Under the pieces are notes generated by a model. The model was given only the letters and a program-made list of their open reading frames with translations. It did no database searches and was not told the DNA's origin. 43,336 bases of DNA from the IMG/VR virus record IMGVR_UViG_2554235189_000011, positions 1 to 43,336 of that record. One strand, given 5' to 3'. The DNA is from a virus (lineage: Duplodnaviria > Heunggongvirae > Uroviricota > Caudoviricetes). Shown here piece after piece: positions 6,889 to 20,291 of this stretch. The number at the start of each line of letters is the position of its first letter. Positions within the stretch are counted from its first letter, which is position 1. The position numbers and the translations under genes are program-made.

Positions 6889-7098
6889 ATGGGGCTGGAT
6901 TGCGTGCCTATATCAACCTACTGCCGCGACGCGGGAGAAACGGTTGATGCCGTTAACAAACGGATACAAAGAGGAATATGGAAAGAAGGGGTTCATGTAT
7001 TAAAAGTCGATGGAGTTAAAGAACGCTGGGTCGACTTAATAGAGGTTTCAAAATGGGCAAGAAAGAACAAGGATTATTATCTCTGCCAAGAGGAGTAA
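6889..7098 (+). CDS. xis: excisionase-like DNA-binding protein
   Basis: 69 aa immediately upstream of and overlapping int; ...RIQRGIWKEGVHVLKVDG... Xis-like motif. Confidence 0.65.
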   Translation: MGLDCVPISTYCRDAGETVDAVNKRIQRGIWKEGVHVLKVDGVKERWVDLIEVSKWARKNKDYYLCQEE

Positions 7099-8231
7099 CT
7101 ATTCGTAAGCATAAAACTGCTTCAACACTAGTTATCACTTTCACATATAAAGGGGTTCTTTGCAGGGAGCCCCTGTCTCGGCTTGAGGCAAATACACGTG
7201 GTATTAAATATGCTGAGCGCCTGCTAGGGGAGATACAAAATCAGATCGCCAGCGGAACGTTTGAATATGCGAAATATTTCCCCAGTTCCAAAAAACTGGA
7301 GTTATTCGGTATAGTAAAGAAAACCAAAAATATTAAGTCCTATCTTGATGAATACCTGAAAATTTGCATGAACCGCAATCTGTCGCCGTCAACCATTGGC
7401 GGTTACGAAAAATGTATATCAGCACTATCAGAGCTACATAAACTACATGTAACAGAATTGACGCCTGCGGTACTAAAAAATTGGATAGCCAGCCGAAAAA
7501 CTAAGCTGAAAACAATCAGGAATAACCTGTCATTTCTGCGCAGCGCCATTGATGAGGCTGTAACTGATGGCCTGTTGACTATTAACCCGGTAACTCTTGT
7601 CAGCGCCAGCCGGTATCACGTGGTCGACAGTAAACCGAACGCCGACGATTACGAAGTTGATCCGTTTGCGCCTGCGGAAACCAGTGCCATATATCAGCAC
7701 TGCAAGTATCAGGAATGGCAGAATCTGTTCCGCTTCGCCTTCAATACAGGGCTACGCAGCTCTGAGCTATGCGCATTACGTTGGACCGATATCGACTTTA
7801 TAGGTAATACAGCGCACATACAGGCGGCCAGTGTCGTAGGGGTACTTAAAGGCACCAAGACAAAAGCCGGTACCCGTAAGGTGGAGCTGAACAGTGAGGC
7901 TCTGGCGGCCCTGCAGGCGCAGAAGCAATACACCTTTATGAAAAGTGAGTTCATATTCAGCGATCCGAAAACGGGAGATCCCTGGACGAACGCCGACGCT
8001 ATCCGTAAAAAAGCATGGGTGCCGACCCTAAAAAAAGCTGGTGTGCGCTACCGTAACCCGTACCAGACGCGCCACACATTCGCCACCAGACACATTAGCC
8101 AGGGTGTAAACCTTTTCTGGCTTGCCGGGCAGATGGGGCATAAGGGGCCGGAAATGCTGTTCCGCAATTACGGTAAATACCTGGCTGAATACGACGGGAA
8201 AACCGCAATGGAAGCTGGAATGAAGAATTGA
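7053..8231 (+). CDS. int: tyrosine integrase
   Basis: 392 aa; C-terminal catalytic region with R...HxxR...Y (RHTFATRHISQG...GHKGPEMLFRNYGKY). Confidence 0.9.
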   Translation: MGKKEQGLLSLPRGVTIRKHKTASTLVITFTYKGVLCREPLSRLEANTRGIKYAERLLGEIQNQIASGTFEYAKYFPSSKKLELFGIVKKTKNIKSYLDEYLKICMNRNLSPSTIGGYEKCISALSELHKLHVTELTPAVLKNWIASRKTKLKTIRNNLSFLRSAIDEAVTDGLLTINPVTLVSASRYHVVDSKPNADDYEVDPFAPAETSAIYQHCKYQEWQNLFRFAFNTGLRSSELCALRWTDIDFIGNTAHIQAASVVGVLKGTKTKAGTRKVELNSEALAALQAQKQYTFMKSEFIFSDPKTGDPWTNADAIRKKAWVPTLKKAGVRYRNPYQTRHTFATRHISQGVNLFWLAGQMGHKGPEMLFRNYGKYLAEYDGKTAMEAGMKN

Positions 8232-8244
8232 TTTGAAGAAAAAA

Positions 8245-8267
8245 CCCGGCAAATGCCGGGTCTTTTT
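8245..8267. terminator. bidirectional rho-independent terminator between convergent int and 8273-9040
   Basis: CCCGGCAAATGCCGGG hairpin flanked by A-tract and T-tract. Confidence 0.7.
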
Positions 8268-8272
8268 GATGG

Positions 8273-9040
8273 TTATTCTGTCGCGCCACCTATCGAAACA
8301 TAATCATGAAATTGATCGTCAATGAGTCGGTCCTTACAGATAACATGTACAATGTGACGACAACAGTTTTCATCATCATACGCACGACCCCAGCGAACAA
8401 TCTCATCTACAGACAGATCATTCGCACTCCATGGCAAAGTACCTGAAACACCACGCGCACCTGGACCAAGTATGTCCATAAATTTCTTCGTGCGTGAATT
8501 GTAGATCCGTACCTCGGCAATTCGAATGATGCTACTAGCCCAAAGAGCACCACCGGCAATACTTTGAATGTTATCGCAGATGAGAAACTCATGCTTTCGC
8601 GCAAGCATTTTATAGATCTCACGCGCCAAACCTGCTGATTGGAAATCCTGTGCGATAACAGCGCTTTTCACTTGCTTTCCGGTCATCATCTGACCGTTCT
8701 CTTCGATAAAATTAAAGTCGTTGAACTGTATACGACCTATTCTTATCGTTTTGTTATCGTCTACCATATCAAGACCCAAGAGGGTATTGACCAGATCCTG
8801 CATTGGAACCTTCGAATCAAGAAGGTCACTGCCATAGTCTAAAAAAAAGTCGTCGGTGGAACATCCCAGTTGATACACATCCAAGTAGTACTGAAACTCA
8901 CCAGAACTGACAATGTACTCATCAGCCCTCAGTAAGCCAGCCTCGGCAGTGAAAAAATAGAATGACTCAATAAGACGTTTTTCGCCAAATGGCGTGATGT
9001 TCAAGTCCTTGTTATATGAAGGTATTAACGCAGGAGCCAT
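8273..9040 (-). CDS. hypothetical protein (distal gene of int-att cargo operon)
   Basis: 255-aa ORF; no confident motif; lower GC than phage core. Confidence 0.6.
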   Translation of the reverse strand: MAPALIPSYNKDLNITPFGEKRLIESFYFFTAEAGLLRADEYIVSSGEFQYYLDVYQLGCSTDDFFLDYGSDLLDSKVPMQDLVNTLLGLDMVDDNKTIRIGRIQFNDFNFIEENGQMMTGKQVKSAVIAQDFQSAGLAREIYKMLARKHEFLICDNIQSIAGGALWASSIIRIAEVRIYNSRTKKFMDILGPGARGVSGTLPWSANDLSVDEIVRWGRAYDDENCCRHIVHVICKDRLIDDQFHDYVSIGGATE

Positions 9041-9051
9041 TCAGCAACCTT

Positions 9052-9393
9052 TTAATGGTAGTTAATTTCCCTGTAGTTCTTCTGCATGTATAGAGCAATT
9101 GCCGCTTCAATTTTCTTCAGCAGATTACTGCTTACATACTGAGGATACTGATCTGCTGGCTTCACAACATAGCGCAATTTTTCTTTGTTCATGGCGATCT
9201 CAGCGAACGGGATCACGTCACCGTCACGAACCTCATTGTTCAATGTCACAATAAACAGCTGACGTGCCGGGGAGACACGATCACTCAGTCTTCTCACGAA
9301 GAACTCGTTTGCTGTGTTTGAGTCAACAAAAGAACTGACGAGTTGAGTCCGACGCTCAATCGTCTGTATCGATCTTCTCGCTACTGTTCTCAT
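9052..9393 (-). CDS. hypothetical protein (proximal gene of int-att cargo operon)
   Basis: 113-aa ORF 11 nt upstream of 8273-9040, same strand. Confidence 0.6.
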   Translation of the reverse strand: MRTVARRSIQTIERRTQLVSSFVDSNTANEFFVRRLSDRVSPARQLFIVTLNNEVRDGDVIPFAEIAMNKEKLRYVVKPADQYPQYVSSNLLKKIEAAIALYMQKNYREINYH

Positions 9394-9721
9394 GCTAGTC
9401 TCCTCAACACTTCACTAGCTGTGCAGTGAAGGTACAAAAAGCCACTGATGATAACAGCGTCATCAGTGGCCCTTGATGGTGATAACCGCAGTTATCTAAA
9501 TAGTATGATATTACCTTACGGGTAATTCTTCAACGATTGCTCTGAATTGAATAGTCTTGAAGTGCTATGAACAGCACAAAACAGCGCTAATCACCGCCCC
9601 AGTGGCGCCTAAACACTTCAAAATGTTGGACAGAATCAGGACGTTAGAAGCACTACAATATGCACGTAAAATGCACGTGAGGTATTTTAAATTAGAAAAA
9701 TCATTAATATTCAATTGGTTA

Positions 9722-9763
9722 AGAATTTTTCGGATACGGGTTCAACTCCCGCCAGCTCCACCA
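9722..9763 (+). other. att core: partial copy of the ssrA (tmRNA) 3' end
   Basis: AGAATTTTTCGGATACGGGTTCAACTCCCGCCAGCTCCACCA matches the recalled E. coli ssrA 3' end with a few mismatches; no tmRNA body upstream. Confidence 0.75.
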
Positions 9764-9893
9764 ATCATGATTGGACGGTGTAAGGACAACACCAACAAAA
9801 ACAGGAAGTTAGCAGTCTCAGCAGGACACCGACCAGACGGTGAGGAGACAAAAAAGGATACGCAAAGGAGCCGCGGCTCTCAAGTGTGAAAGA

Positions 9894-9928
9894 AGCCCGC
9901 AAATTGCGGGCTTTTTTATTGATCAGTC
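9894..9928 (+). terminator. rho-independent terminator
   Basis: AAGCCCGCAAATTGCGGGCTT hairpin followed by TTTTTTATT. Confidence 0.7.
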
Positions 9929-9972
9929 AACAATAAACAGTAACCGAATGAGAATTTAATAAGGATATTCAT

Positions 9973-11004
9973 ATGGAAGCTACTGTGGATTCGATTGATT
10001 TTCTGATCCGTAGTGAAGATGATTTTCTAAACTTTCTGGAAGAAATGAAAGCCCGAGAGGGGCTTGATTCTAAAGAGTTTATTTTCCCTAACGTAAAGTT
10101 TGCAGGCTGGCCATCCTTAGACATAAATGTTAAAGGAGAGCGGTATCATTCATCAATTACATCAGCAATGTTGTTTGGTATGTCAATGCTCAACGAGGAG
10201 ATACAGCGGGCGTTTGCAACCATACGATACGGATCGCAGAATCTTCAACGCTTGACTAATGAAGACAAGCAACGACTTGATATAAATTTTAAAATTAGCG
10301 AAGGTTCTAGTGATGCGGAAGGCACCACTGACAAGATCATCAACGCAGTAACTGATTTTTTGCGAGATACTATGTCTGGACTGAACGGCTGGCAGAAAAT
10401 GCTTGTTATAATCACAATGGTTGGCGCGGCCAGCACATGTGGTTATCACTACATTTCAGAAAATGCCGTAACAGAAAGACATGCAACTGATCGGCAGGTT
10501 GAAATTGCGAAAACCACATCCGATGGCATAAACAAAGCCATAGAAGCAACATTAGATTATAAAATCTATGGGAAATCAGCGATTAGCGATAAAGTTACTA
10601 GTCACGGACAAGCAGGTAAAAGTGCTTTAGTGAAGCAATTAGCTGCTGATCCTACTGTCGAAACCGTGACTTTAGGAAATGAGAAACTAACACGACAAGA
10701 CCTAAATACCTACAACAGCCGACAATCTGTAGATAGAGAACGTAAAGAACGAACTGATATATTTTCCATCAAAGGTGTAACCAGAACAGGGCCAACAAAT
10801 CAGGATATTAATATTAACGTTGTTAGGGTCTCTAATGACGAATGCTTCACAATCAAAGCTTCAGCTGATGTTATCACCCAAGATGAGTTGACAGCTATTG
10901 TTGACGCTTTGTCAAACAACTCTCATATTAAAATCAGTTACTTAGAGGTAATTGAAAAGGGTGCTGTTTCTATAGGTCAGTTCAACACTATTGTTTCAGA
11001 ATAA
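9973..11004 (+). CDS. hypothetical protein with central hydrophobic segment (low-GC cargo)
   Basis: 343-aa ORF; AAGGA RBS; hydrophobic stretch WQKMLVIITMVGAASTCGYHYI. Confidence 0.6.
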   Translation: MEATVDSIDFLIRSEDDFLNFLEEMKAREGLDSKEFIFPNVKFAGWPSLDINVKGERYHSSITSAMLFGMSMLNEEIQRAFATIRYGSQNLQRLTNEDKQRLDINFKISEGSSDAEGTTDKIINAVTDFLRDTMSGLNGWQKMLVIITMVGAASTCGYHYISENAVTERHATDRQVEIAKTTSDGINKAIEATLDYKIYGKSAISDKVTSHGQAGKSALVKQLAADPTVETVTLGNEKLTRQDLNTYNSRQSVDRERKERTDIFSIKGVTRTGPTNQDININVVRVSNDECFTIKASADVITQDELTAIVDALSNNSHIKISYLEVIEKGAVSIGQFNTIVSE

Positions 11005-11055
11005 TCACTTAACCCCATTTATGTAGGTTGAGGTTATAAGTCACGGAGACCAGAT

Positions 11056-11400
11056 ATGTCCTTAAAGTATGCACATGAAAAATTTCATACTGCAGTACTT
11101 ACTCTTGCGGGCCATGGAAGTATTCAAGAACGCTTGATTAATTCGTATGTTTTTAGCCTTGGGCATCTTAAAACAGCCGATGATATTCCAAATGCCTTAC
11201 AAAGCAGGTTCGATGAATTATGTAAGGAACTGACTAAGTTTGATGCCACTGGCGATGAGGGGCGAGTTCAAGCAACAGTATCAAAACTTAACGATTTCGA
11301 GATCAATAAACTGATCGAAGATATTGTCAGTCTTAACGATGATATTTGCATGAAATTGGCTCTGACGGATGAGACTTACCAAGACATACACCAAAGTTAA
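11056..11400 (+). CDS. hypothetical protein (low-GC cargo)
   Basis: 114-aa ORF downstream of 9973-11004. Confidence 0.55.
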   Translation: MSLKYAHEKFHTAVLTLAGHGSIQERLINSYVFSLGHLKTADDIPNALQSRFDELCKELTKFDATGDEGRVQATVSKLNDFEINKLIEDIVSLNDDICMKLALTDETYQDIHQS

Positions 11401-11484
11401 TTGATTAAATTCAAAAAGTTAACGTTCAACCTGCCAGTTTTTGGCTGGTTTATTGTCTTATAATATTCTTGCTCGAATGATGCA

Positions 11485-11697
11485 CTATTTATGATGTAAT
11501 CCGGACATCAGTTCATGGACAAGATTATCTCTTTCATTGTGTTGCAACCGTAAATGCATAGCAAAAAGGTGAGCACTATCCTCATTCCTCTTCAAGCCAT
11601 GCTGTTCAAGATACCCGAAAAAACGGCTTCTCTTATCCGCTATTTCCTGAGTCTGACGTGCAACATTTACCAAATTTTCTAGCGTTTTTCTTGGCAT
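11485..11697 (-). CDS. hypothetical small protein
   Basis: 70-aa ORF with strong AGGAGG RBS. Confidence 0.55.
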   Translation of the reverse strand: MPRKTLENLVNVARQTQEIADKRSRFFGYLEQHGLKRNEDSAHLFAMHLRLQHNERDNLVHELMSGLHHK

Positions 11698-11895
11698 ACT
11701 ATTTCCTCCTGAAATTGTTGTAATTCACTAGGATATTCATTTTAATTTGTATCATTTAGTACCAAAACCGCTATCAATTAACAAAGCCATCGTTGTGGTT
11801 TACCTTGCAGCCGTTTTTTGTCATTGACTCTATGTGAAAATAATGAATCATCATGAGATTGGCTCACACGTTCTTGAATTCGACGAGCTGTGTCT

Positions 11896-12450
11896 TTATT
11901 TATCTCCTGCCGGAAACCTCTGATACAAAGTCGATACGCCAACATCATAGATAATCGCAACTTTCTGGCGCGGAACTCCTGATGCAATTAATCGTCCGGC
12001 TTGTGCCCATTGTTCTGGTGTAAGTTTGGGACGACGTCCACCAATTCGTTCCTGTGCGCGAGCAGCTTCCAGTCCAGCTTTTGTTCGTTCAACAATCAGT
12101 TCTCGTTCCATTTCAGCCAGGGCCCCCATCACATGAAAGAAAAAGCGCCCCATTGGGGTACTGGTATCAATTGAATCCGTCAGACTACGAAAGTTGATGC
12201 CTCGTTCGCGCAACTCCTCCACCAGCACGACAAGATGCCGCATACTGCGCCCCAGCCGGTCCAGTTTCCAGACCACCAGCGTGTCACCTGCCGATAATGT
12301 CCTGAGCAGTTTTTTCAGTCCCGGCCTTTCGGACTTTGTACCGCTTATCTTGTCTTCAAAAATCAGCTCGCATCCTGCACAGTTCAGCGCATTACGTTGT
12401 AGATCTGTGTTCTGGTCATTTGTTGATACGCGTACATAGCCAATAAGCAT
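11896..12450 (-). CDS. pin: serine recombinase, DNA invertase (Pin/Gin/Hin/Cin family)
   Basis: Internal start MLIGYVRVSTNDQNTDLQRNAL...; 184 aa; close to recalled e14 PinE. Confidence 0.9.
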   Translation of the reverse strand: MLIGYVRVSTNDQNTDLQRNALNCAGCELIFEDKISGTKSERPGLKKLLRTLSAGDTLVVWKLDRLGRSMRHLVVLVEELRERGINFRSLTDSIDTSTPMGRFFFHVMGALAEMERELIVERTKAGLEAARAQERIGGRRPKLTPEQWAQAGRLIASGVPRQKVAIIYDVGVSTLYQRFPAGDK

Positions 12451-12504
12451 GGTAGATCCCCCTGACAAAAGCAGGAATGATGCCATTTGCTCGTTATTTC
12501 TGCA

Positions 12505-12530
12505 TTTCCATAAACGTTGGTTTGGGAGAA
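12505..12530. repeat. invertase crossover site (pix/gix-like), pin-proximal
   Basis: TTTCCATAAACGTTGGTTTGGGAGAA; 15 nt of its reverse complement are identical to the site at 14396-14421. Confidence 0.7.
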
Positions 12531-12998
12531 GGCTCTGCATTACCTGTTGGTGTGCCTGTTCCATGGCCTTCAGCCACACCGCCAACAGGCTGGCTGAAAT
12601 GCAACGGTGCGGCATTTTCTGCTGAAGAATACCCGGAACTGGCAAAGGCTTATCCAACAAATAAATTACCTGATTTACGCGGTGAGTTTATTCGTGGCTG
12701 GGATGACGGGCGCGGTATTGATGCAGGACGTGTTTTATTGAGTATTCAGGCCGGAATGCTGGAAAAGCACCGTCATCCTGTTGTCGCCAACGATGGGTAT
12801 GACTCAAAAGAGGAATGGGAACTGGCGACAATCTTCAGAAGAGCATATACGCAAGGCAGGGGGCTTGATGCTGCCGCTGCCGGAGGGAGTCTGATCCCAT
12901 CACCGACACTTCATTCACGAGGGAGTATCGGTAATACTGGCGGGAGTGAAACCCGTCCACGAAATATTGCATTTAACTATATCGTGAGGGCTGCATAA
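12531..12998 (+). CDS. alternative tail-fiber C-terminal variable segment, currently silent
   Basis: Start-less ORF beginning at the crossover site (...GLGE GSALPVGVPVPWPSATPPTGWLKCNGAAF...). Confidence 0.7.
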   Translation, partial: GSALPVGVPVPWPSATPPTGWLKCNGAAFSAEEYPELAKAYPTNKLPDLRGEFIRGWDDGRGIDAGRVLLSIQAGMLEKHRHPVVANDGYDSKEEWELATIFRRAYTQGRGLDAAAAGGSLIPSPTLHSRGSIGNTGGSETRPRNIAFNYIVRAA

Positions 12999-14035: not shown

Positions 14036-14698
14036 TTACTCACCAACAGCCCACCAACTGTAATTCATCGATACCGTGTCGCTGGTTGATGACGTTCTGT
14101 AAGCAGAATTAAAGCCGGTTAACGTTGGGCCTTCTGCAGTCATCACGGACCCTCGCCCAGCGCCTAAAGGCGCACCGCCATCACCAGAATGAGTAAGCAT
14201 GGCGCAGTCCGCTTTTTTGGGGAAAGGGATGCTAAATGTAATTCTCATTGTTTGCGTCGATAATGTCGGCGTAACCGCACCACGACCATATTGCAGGATT
14301 TTCCCGTTGGGTAATTTCATCCATCCATCACCACTGGCAAAAGAGGCCATGTCCGGTATCTGATTTTCCCCTGTCCCTACATCCCGTTTTGCCGCTTCTC
14401 CCAAACCAAGGTTTTCGAGAGCCGTTTTCACCGTGCCATCCGATTTGATATCGCCAAACGGATTCTTGCGGCTTAACAGCAGCGCGCGAAGCGCGGTAAG
14501 TAGCTGGTCGTGCCGCCCCTTCTCCAGGCTGGCACCGGACGCCTCCACAACGCTGCAAAGCTCCTCCTGCAACATGTCAAAGTAGTCATCATCCAGATCG
14601 GTGGCAGGCGTGCCGGTCTGGGGGTTACCACGGGTAAAACCGTTCTTACCCGCGCCGAACTTATCCTTCTGCGCGGTTTTCGTGTCTATACGATGCAT
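14036..14698 (-). CDS. tail fiber protein (short constant N-terminus plus variable C-terminus)
   Basis: 220 aa; contains the crossover site at ENLGLGE. Confidence 0.75.
14396..14421. repeat. invertase crossover site (pix/gix-like), inside tail fiber gene
   Basis: TTCTCCCAAACCAAGGTTTTCGAGAG; close to the recalled gix consensus. Confidence 0.7.
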
Positions 14699-19760: not shown

Positions 19761-20291
19761 TTAGCGAGTCAGAAACAACGAATCTTTATACTTTTGCTGT
19801 TGTTCATTTAAATACTTAGCTGTTTCATCGCTGGCAAATGGAAATATTACCGTATTTTTAGGCATGGTAATTTCTTTTTTGTCCAGCGTCAGAGTAAACA
19901 TAGGAACATACTGAGCAGAGTAACGCACCGCAGAAACGAGCTCTAGTTTAGACTCTTCAATAACACTTAAATTATCCAGGCTAACTTTCTCTTCATCTTT
20001 TTTCTTTGACGCATTTAAAGTTTTTATTACTTTATTTAATTTCTCCTGAAAATCCTCCTTAAAGTTTTCAGGATTGCCGTCGACAACAAGAATCTGTTCA
20101 CCCTGATTATCTGGAAAAATAATCTTTGCACTTATCAATTTATTTTCTTTATAAACATCACCAAGTTTTATGGCTCCTCCAGATAACTGAATAATATGTT
20201 CATCTTTAAAGGAGATGTTGCCAGAGATTATGAGAGATGAAAAAATAGCCGCTGCTCCAAGAATTACACTTGCTGTGATATAGCCTTTCAT
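19761..20291 (-). CDS. moron: secreted or membrane-anchored protein of unknown function
   Basis: 176 aa, N-terminal signal-like MKGYITASVILGAAAIFSSLIISG, very low GC; inserted between tape measure and gp43. Confidence 0.65.
   Translation of the reverse strand: MKGYITASVILGAAAIFSSLIISGNISFKDEHIIQLSGGAIKLGDVYKENKLISAKIIFPDNQGEQILVVDGNPENFKEDFQEKLNKVIKTLNASKKKDEEKVSLDNLSVIEESKLELVSAVRYSAQYVPMFTLTLDKKEITMPKNTVIFPFASDETAKYLNEQQQKYKDSLFLTR

Follow-up and report, generated by a model that had tools for sequence, protein, structure and literature searches.

The lambda cI-rexA-rexB operon mediates abortive infection, and the position directly after cI is the place of rexA-rexB in lambda; both RexAB and BstA are abortive systems found in this cI-downstream slot. 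HK97 gp15 is a single prophage-expressed inner-membrane protein for which an action at genome entry has been proposed. P22 SieA, also a prophage-expressed inner-membrane protein, mediates superinfection exclusion and is proposed to act at genome entry (PMC10883804), and SNIPE (PD-lambda-1) is a nuclease bound to the membrane, which cleaves phage DNA as it is injected (PMC13190303). Here we describe a gene of 343 codons, called gene A below, in the IMG/VR virus record IMGVR_UViG_2554235189_000011, which was analysed over its whole length of 43,336 nucleotides (nt) and is referred to as the window. With a probability of roughly 0.55, gene A encodes a prophage-expressed inner-membrane anti-phage protein that acts at the site of phage entry; the specific steps of such an action are much less certain.

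Gene A lies together with two smaller genes, B and C, between a fragment of the transfer-messenger RNA (tmRNA) gene ssrA and the invertase gene pin. The open reading frame (ORF) far exceeds the length expected by chance, and A is thus a genuine coding gene. Its close relatives form 76 clusters, all from Enterobacterales and all labelled “hypothetical”. A profile search of 1.84 billion representatives returned 839 proteins at E <= 0.001 (498 at E <= 1e-10), nearly all of 320-350 residues. A belongs to phrog_6191 (function unknown); beyond this assignment, none of the three genes had a match in Pfam, PADLOC, NCBIfam, or PHROGs. Solved structures searched by sequence with A, B, C, and the family profile returned noise only, and Foldseek against BFVD gave two full-length matches only, one in Leptospira phage LE1 and one in a Myoviridae contig, neither of them characterised. 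A MotB-like match (E 0.005) was rejected as noise and spans just the membrane helix and the linker. The GenBank label “T2SS GspM” on the homolog in phage PhiR12 was likewise rejected, as no T2SSM match came up when the PhiR12, phi458, and JNE132847 homologs were scanned with Pfam at E values up to 10. An earlier sequence-only reading of the window had found no recognisable function for the three genes, and this holds, as the libraries gave no characterised match for any of them. Searches of the kind which that reading had proposed, for remote homology and structure, gave no homology to housekeeping or known structural phage proteins in these libraries.

The neighbourhoods of relatives were compared at 49 loci, corresponding to 26 groups at 90% identity. 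In the commonest layout, a co-directional gene encoding 215-268 residues ends 26-188 nt 5' of the A-family gene, and a short divergent gene lies before that. The upstream gene encodes helix-turn-helix (HTH) and Peptidase_S24 domains according to Pfam, i.e., a LexA-like CI repressor, in 14 of the 15 prophage loci tested. Two sequenced lambdoid phages have an annotated order. In phi458, cII is followed by cI, which is encoded on the other strand, and cI by the A-family gene; PhiR12 has cro in place of cII, and N lies beyond its A-family gene. A second family member is found in E. coli strain JNE132847; the window, itself E. coli DNA, matches this strain at 99.9% identity across most of the window's length. 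This 332-residue paralog (WP_000406300.1; locus L001, 3861-4859; profile E 2.8e-82) directly follows the LexA-family repressor of the neighbouring lambdoid prophage, which places two family members in two slots of one genome.

The family is not confined to the repressor region. One allele group (at least 90% identity) follows several different cI alleles, and another is found both after cI and elsewhere. Members lie between the phage attachment site (att) and the integrase gene at the ends of four viral contigs and in Scandinavium, where the order is icd, A, int, and others lie between ssrA and pin or tail fibre genes. Unrelated phage types are represented, namely lambdoid siphoviruses and P27/e14-like myoviruses, and two distant relatives have defence-type genes around them, where adjacent phage genes were not recognised. 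This distribution over slots and phage types argues that A is exchangeable cargo and not a core regulatory gene. Judged from gene order, A behaves as an exchangeable single-gene module in slots for genes that temperate phages express in the lysogen.

Relatives of A thus share with RexA/RexB the place after cI in phi458, in PhiR12, and at 14 of the 15 tested prophage loci, and in the two phages the slot lies after cI and before N, as does that of rexAB in lambda. A further common feature is the association with the membrane that is predicted for A. The family repeatedly takes the rexAB place beside the repressor in lambdoid phages. RexAB, however, consists of two genes, whereas the relatives of A are single genes after cI and do not form a two-gene operon; RexB has four membrane helices, whereas one is predicted for A; and A in the window adjoins ssrA and pin, not cI. 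PADLOC includes Rex and BstA models. No match to RexA or RexB was found in PADLOC, Pfam, annotated PHROGs, or NCBIfam for A, B, C, or 40 distant relatives, and A had no PADLOC or Pfam match to BstA.

The gene and the predicted architecture of its product are as follows, the latter from an AlphaFold model with a predicted local distance difference test (pLDDT) score of 75.8.

Window 9973 to 11004, plus strand: gene A, an ORF encoding 343 residues
Residues 8 to 135: N-terminal alpha/beta domain (AlphaFold), presumably cytoplasmic
Residues about 139 to 161: membrane helix (AlphaFold helix 139 to 153)
Residues 156 to 187: disordered linker (AlphaFold)
Residues 180 to 224: helical hairpin (AlphaFold)
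Residues 256 to 340: C-terminal OB-fold (AlphaFold), a beta-barrel of five strands, the third and fourth of which have a helix between them

The predicted C terminus has the five strands and the intervening helix by which an OB-fold is recognised. The central hydrophobic segment noted previously in the 343-residue protein was confirmed as a single one at residues 143-161, with a Kyte-Doolittle mean over 19 residues of 1.41. Each of 71 family members has one strongly hydrophobic 19-residue stretch (mean 1.76) that starts within residues 125-159, and the second-best stretch is always below 1.6. The position of the membrane segment is conserved, and its sequence poorly so. The net charge of its flanks is +0.5 N-terminally and -1.3 C-terminally, a difference whose Wilcoxon p value of 1e-6 is inflated by the relatedness of the sequences. 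As no signal peptide precedes the 135-residue N domain, this domain is likely cytoplasmic, with the hairpin and the OB-fold in the periplasm. A would accordingly be a single-helix inner-membrane protein with an N-in/C-out orientation, which the flank charges fit.

Conservation is unevenly spread over these parts. Identity to distant members is 28% in the N domain, 19% in the OB domain, and 9-13% in the linker and hairpin. Among 137 representatives, G55 (n = 133), G111 (n = 134), M137 (n = 130), and L94 (n = 128) are near-invariant. At residue 112, Ser occurs in 120 of the representatives and Cys in 16 (Ser or Cys in 136/137), and the next residue is Ser or Thr in 130, which yields a nearly invariant G-[S/C]-[S/T] motif within the N-terminal domain. 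The Q74-equivalent, Y86, K/R99, and E103 are also conserved. Alternation of Ser and Cys at residue 112 is the pattern expected of a nucleophile, which we regard as a lead and not as a finding.

In the mechanism proposed here, A would be a stand-alone “moron” that the prophage expresses in the lysogen and that protects the cell against other phages. The variable periplasmic OB-fold module would recognise part of the genome-delivery apparatus of an incoming phage at the inner membrane, and the conserved cytoplasmic N domain with its G-[S/C]-[S/T] motif would then execute the effect. This effect might be a block of genome entry or an action on the material that has entered, as happens in entry-step exclusion. 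The family, its genomic positions, and the mobility of the gene rest on comparison, and the architecture on prediction; expression in the lysogen, topology, anti-phage activity, and the step of action are all points that we infer. A further-reaching version, in which the family constitutes new single-chain transmembrane immune receptors, with an OB-fold that senses the ejection apparatus and a Ser/Cys nucleophile enzyme of novel fold, and serves as a one-gene replacement of rexAB found widely across Proteobacteria and their phages, appears improbable.

SieA and gp15 would share this entry-step logic with A. Homology to them was not found, and A differs from both in its predicted folded domains on both sides of the membrane, its invariant Ser/Cys in the N domain, and a far broader family (839 clusters). 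SNIPE is likewise a single-pass inner-membrane protein whose cytoplasmic domain works at the entry site, which is the logic proposed for A. The N terminus of SNIPE is periplasmic and its DUF4041 and GIY-YIG domains are cytoplasmic, whereas A probably has the opposite orientation, with the OB-fold outside; unlike SNIPE, A has no nuclease or DUF4041 match. Among the single-gene defences compared, the predicted layout of A is unusual, with a folded domain on each membrane side, a near-invariant Ser/Cys, and no known fold that explains it.

Gene A has been flagged before. A machine-learning study from 2026, DefensePredictor, reports 1,041 E. coli clusters that hold a predicted uncharacterised defence protein (PMC13092281). 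Its Table S10 lists cluster WP_021530618.1 with the member WP_001272876.1 (348 residues, mean log-odds 6.86) and gives no homolog or structural match for it among known systems (PMC13092281); in the portions of the supplement that were searched, the cluster was not found among the validated systems (PMC13092281). WP_021530618.1 is the annotated product at locus L002, and A matches it at 343/343 residues; the cluster is the same protein (100% identity), listed as a machine-learning prediction only. The phi458 paper treats the whole prophage and not the A-family gene, an accession-based literature search returned only the DefensePredictor table, and no experimental work on the family was found in the reachable literature. 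What is already known is thus that the cluster of A carries a published prediction and that its family is without a characterised member. If A is anti-phage, this would name and explain a large unannotated family (839 clusters, one PHROG whose function is unknown, and nothing in Pfam). The gene measures 1 kb and stands alone in many contexts, and its natural carrier E. coli 042 is well studied.

Position, neighbours, and the published prediction make A a candidate defence gene, and several points weigh against an anti-phage role at the entry site. All arguments for a role in defence are positional or predictive, and DefensePredictor is not fully independent support since the predictor itself uses genomic context. 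Neither A nor any of 40 distant relatives had a match in Pfam, PADLOC, NCBIfam, or sequences from the PDB. The OB-fold is acidic (pI 5.5) and, being a generic fold, points to nothing specific, and the N domain had no fold match and gave a poor stand-alone model (pLDDT 64). Two non-prophage contexts of relatives were examined. In the window, the 55 nt that separate the ssrA terminator from A contained no recognisable sigma-70-like promoter, and expression here may come from a weak AT-rich promoter or from read-through of ssrA. Prophage slots of the same kind also carry virulence or envelope factors. Finally, exclusion and abortive infection look alike at the level of sequence.

The last of these points leads to the rival that survives best, although we consider it unlikely. 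A might trigger abortive infection if its small-residue-rich helix oligomerises on a phage cue and collapses the membrane potential, like RexB. The cI-downstream slot of the relatives is the rexAB slot, G/A/S/T residues abound in the membrane helix, where the position of residue 155 is occupied by Gly in 99/137 representatives, and the juxtamembrane Met137 is kept in 130/137. Such a mechanism leaves the two folded domains that flank the membrane without a role, and the near-invariant Ser/Cys suggests chemistry and not a simple pore. A is also unlike RexA, RexB, or any PADLOC effector.

A somewhat more doubtful explanation is lysogenic conversion, in which the periplasmic OB-fold would bind a ligand, a metal, or an envelope component and alter fitness, stress tolerance, or virulence. 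Prophage-end slots are established carriers of such accessory genes, and some carriers of A are pathogenic, e.g., E. coli 042. The conserved part of A is the N domain, which is probably cytoplasmic, and not the OB domain that this explanation needs, and identity to SilF is just 13%. Repeated placement after cI and the defence-type genes near two distant relatives point instead to phage conflict.

It is very unlikely that A serves the cycle of its own prophage and not host defence, for example by modulating how stable the repressor is, or induction, or the lysis or entry of its own kind. With gaps of 26-188 nt, many relatives are likely co-transcribed with cI, which would suit such a function. 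The same gene nevertheless occurs in att- and pin-adjacent slots far from the immunity region, in phages as unrelated as lambdoid siphoviruses and P27/e14-like myoviruses, and, for the two distant relatives among defence-type genes, where no adjacent phage genes were recognised.

Returning to A as a candidate anti-phage gene, the question is whether B and C belong to it. The features of the island and its borders, in order along the window, are listed here.

9672 to 9763, plus strand: 3' fragment of ssrA (Rfam tmRNA, E 7.7e-5), the att site common to both tandem prophages and left border of the slot
9889 to 9917, plus strand: ssrA-type terminator hairpin with a T run, an inverted repeat with 14-nt arms (93% complementary), 55 nt 5' of A
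11056 to 11400, plus strand: gene B, 114 residues, acidic (pI 4.9), an orphan; GGAG 7 nt 5' of the ATG
11433 to 11449, plus strand: terminator-like hairpin with a T run, 3' of B, separating the convergent genes B and C
11485 to 11697, minus strand: gene C, 70 residues, basic (pI 9.4), an orphan; AGGAGG 7 nt 5' of the ATG
11808 to 11895, no strand assigned: yedL-like remnant (GNAT acetyltransferase gene) of about 84 nt, 76-82% identity to yedL in more than 1200 genomes
11896 to 12450, minus strand: pin, a pinE-type serine invertase gene (Pfam Resolvase 2e-50, and HTH_7), the right border of the slot

All three ORFs lie where the sequence-only reading had placed them, and its description of the island as markedly lower in GC, with AT-rich codon usage, was borne out. 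The GC content is 0.391 in the island, 0.496 in the whole window, and 0.549 in the structural module (14.5-32.5 kb), and only 2.8% of segments of the island's length are equally AT-rich. GC at third codon positions is 0.34-0.37 in A, B, and C and 0.44-0.51 in pin and the neighbouring integrase gene. The stop codon of A and the start of B are 51 nt apart, and from this spacing and the GGAG before B the two genes are probably co-transcribed. Compared with an 87%-identical copy at locus L014, B shows 25 synonymous and 18 non-synonymous changes, and the resulting ratio of non-synonymous to synonymous substitution rates (dN/dS) of 0.15 indicates that B is a real gene under purifying selection. C is of a length at which a chance ORF is possible; a strong ribosome-binding site and a RefSeq annotation weakly support it as a gene. 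C had been described as a convergent gene with a strong ribosome-binding site, which agrees with its AGGAGG and its orientation toward A-B, but it is not isolated, as it lies downstream of pin on the same strand. Direct repeats flanking the island were looked for and none were found, and the idea of an independently transposed islet was rejected on this ground.

Of 5426 complete E. coli genomes, 46 contain gene A, in each case at an identity of at least 99% and accompanied by B and C. Identical A proteins are further recorded under the names Salmonella Derby and Citrobacter portucalensis, and B under Klebsiella. By these identities, A-B-C is one recently spread cassette and A a rare accessory gene. 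No B or C was found beside relatives of A in Mangrovibacter, Photorhabdus, Serratia, Citrobacter, Scandinavium, Pseudoalteromonas, and Pseudomonas, or in 42 viral contigs. B formed only six clusters in a search of 5.8 billion proteins, its full-length matches being 84-99% identical, and C formed only three, every one at least 95% identical; neither matched any of 50,697 phage records. In the diverged cassette copy L014, homology stops inside C, and a SRAP/YedK-like gene (L014, 896-1276) follows A-B. C is dispensable for A-B, since L014 keeps A-B with C truncated.

B and C are therefore best read as lineage-specific additions and not as required partners of A. The proposal that the three genes form one cargo unit was not upheld, as relatives of A in other genera and phages lack B and C, and B and C have no relatives beyond near-identical copies. 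The related suggestion of defence or exclusion cargo stands for A alone, on the circumstantial evidence of its position, its neighbours, and the published prediction, and falls for the three genes as a system. That A-B or B-C is a toxin-antitoxin or addiction pair stabilising the prophage end is barely credible, even with A and B adjacent on one strand 51 nt apart, B small and acidic, C small and basic, and all three genes together in all 46 E. coli genomes, as this co-occurrence reflects one recent cassette (at least 99% identical), relatives of A outside E. coli-like genomes have no adjacent B or C, B and C have no detectable family, and C is truncated in L014 where A-B persists. A type II toxin-antitoxin pair of A and B was rejected because B does not co-occur with A in relatives.

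Two short sequences consist solely of the stretch from the terminator through A-B-C to pin, namely NZ_CP148395.1, a 2637-bp “plasmid”, and L013, a 2676-bp contig that corresponds to window 9850-12523. The L013 copy of A carries a frameshift. Contigs of this kind, about 2.6 kb long, occur in public assemblies and probably represent pieces of the assembly graph, with the repeated ssrA trailer and the pin crossover site as their borders.

The yedL-like remnant beside pin appears to be the scar of an earlier pin-side cargo. Genes yedK and yedL are adjacent in K-12, and the yedL remnant in the window together with the SRAP/YedK-like gene in L014 hints at an older shared neighbourhood. The island region is a mosaic.

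Placement of the island between att and pin was confirmed, with the ssrA 3' fragment on its left and pin, annotated as pinE in near-identical genomes, on its right. The exact last 25 nt of ssrA (9739-9763) occur once in the window. ARAGORN found no tRNA or tmRNA gene in the window, and ssrA is present as a 3' fragment only. An intact ssrA lies immediately 5' of A-B-C-pin in 45 other complete E. coli genomes. Here only a fragment adjoins the island because a second, lambdoid prophage, with its integrase gene at 7053..8231, has integrated into the same ssrA site, both in the window and in JNE132847. Beyond pin follow an invertible tail-fibre segment and then genes for tail, head, and lysis, all part of a P27/e14-like myovirus prophage, at one end of which the island sits and which contains ymfQ, ymfR, and a P27-family small terminase gene.

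The same side of pin was inspected in five other E. coli genomes with related prophages, with the following cargo in the slot.

K-12 e14: mcrA, then the icd att remnant (mcrA between pinE and icd)
A38 and EDL933: LEM-3-like GIY-YIG protein and AraC regulator
2018-06-4CC: GIY-YIG protein, cytosine methyltransferase, and type II restriction enzyme
Isolate 127: hypothetical protein of 215 residues

The slot beside pin is a hotspot for cargo, and nucleases or restriction systems make up several of the alternatives seen there. The comparison with e14 made from the window alone was apt, since mcrA in K-12 sits between pinE and the icd att remnant. McrA of e14 thus occupies the same slot as A, between pin and att in a related P27/e14-like prophage. 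McrA is an HNH type IV restriction enzyme, whereas A, B, and C have no nuclease signature.

Several further observations concern the regions around the slot. At its left border, window 9400-9765 is 98.6% identical to the ends of PhiR12 phages. The 158 nt past the ssrA core (9766-9923, terminator included) are 89-91% identical in about 4170 E. coli genomes and at least 99% identical among 47 carriers, a contrast which suggests that the prophage brings its own copy of the ssrA trailer. Between the lambdoid integrase gene and the att fragment (7053-9393) lie two minus-strand genes encoding 255 residues (phrog_3307) and 113 residues (phrog_2594), and this interval is another att-adjacent cargo slot.

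On the other side, beside pin, the window and JNE132847 have opposite orientations of the segment 12512-14414, which carries the C-terminal part of the tail fibre gene and assembly genes and is 99.9% identical between the two. Inverted repeats of 20 nt, AAAC(G/C)TTGGTTTGGGAGAAG, flank it (12512-12531 and 14395-14414), and it is the pin-invertible segment, observed here in either orientation.

The P27-like prophage is a remnant, as an integrase gene and a second att copy are absent from the window. Within 39704-43336, insertion sequence (IS) remnants cut off its early region, and after them come the pseudogenes ypjA and ypjC and a fragment of a recombinase; JNE132847 has an extra 1.2 kb or so here with an IS30 transposase gene. 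At about 32795-33800 (GC 0.38), two plus-strand hypothetical genes lie between the HNH/terminase and lysis genes, in the direction opposite to the surrounding phage genes, and are possibly another accessory-gene pair. A stretch with a GC content of 0.35, at about 19761-20261, coincides with a hypothetical gene between the tape-measure and DNA-circularisation genes.

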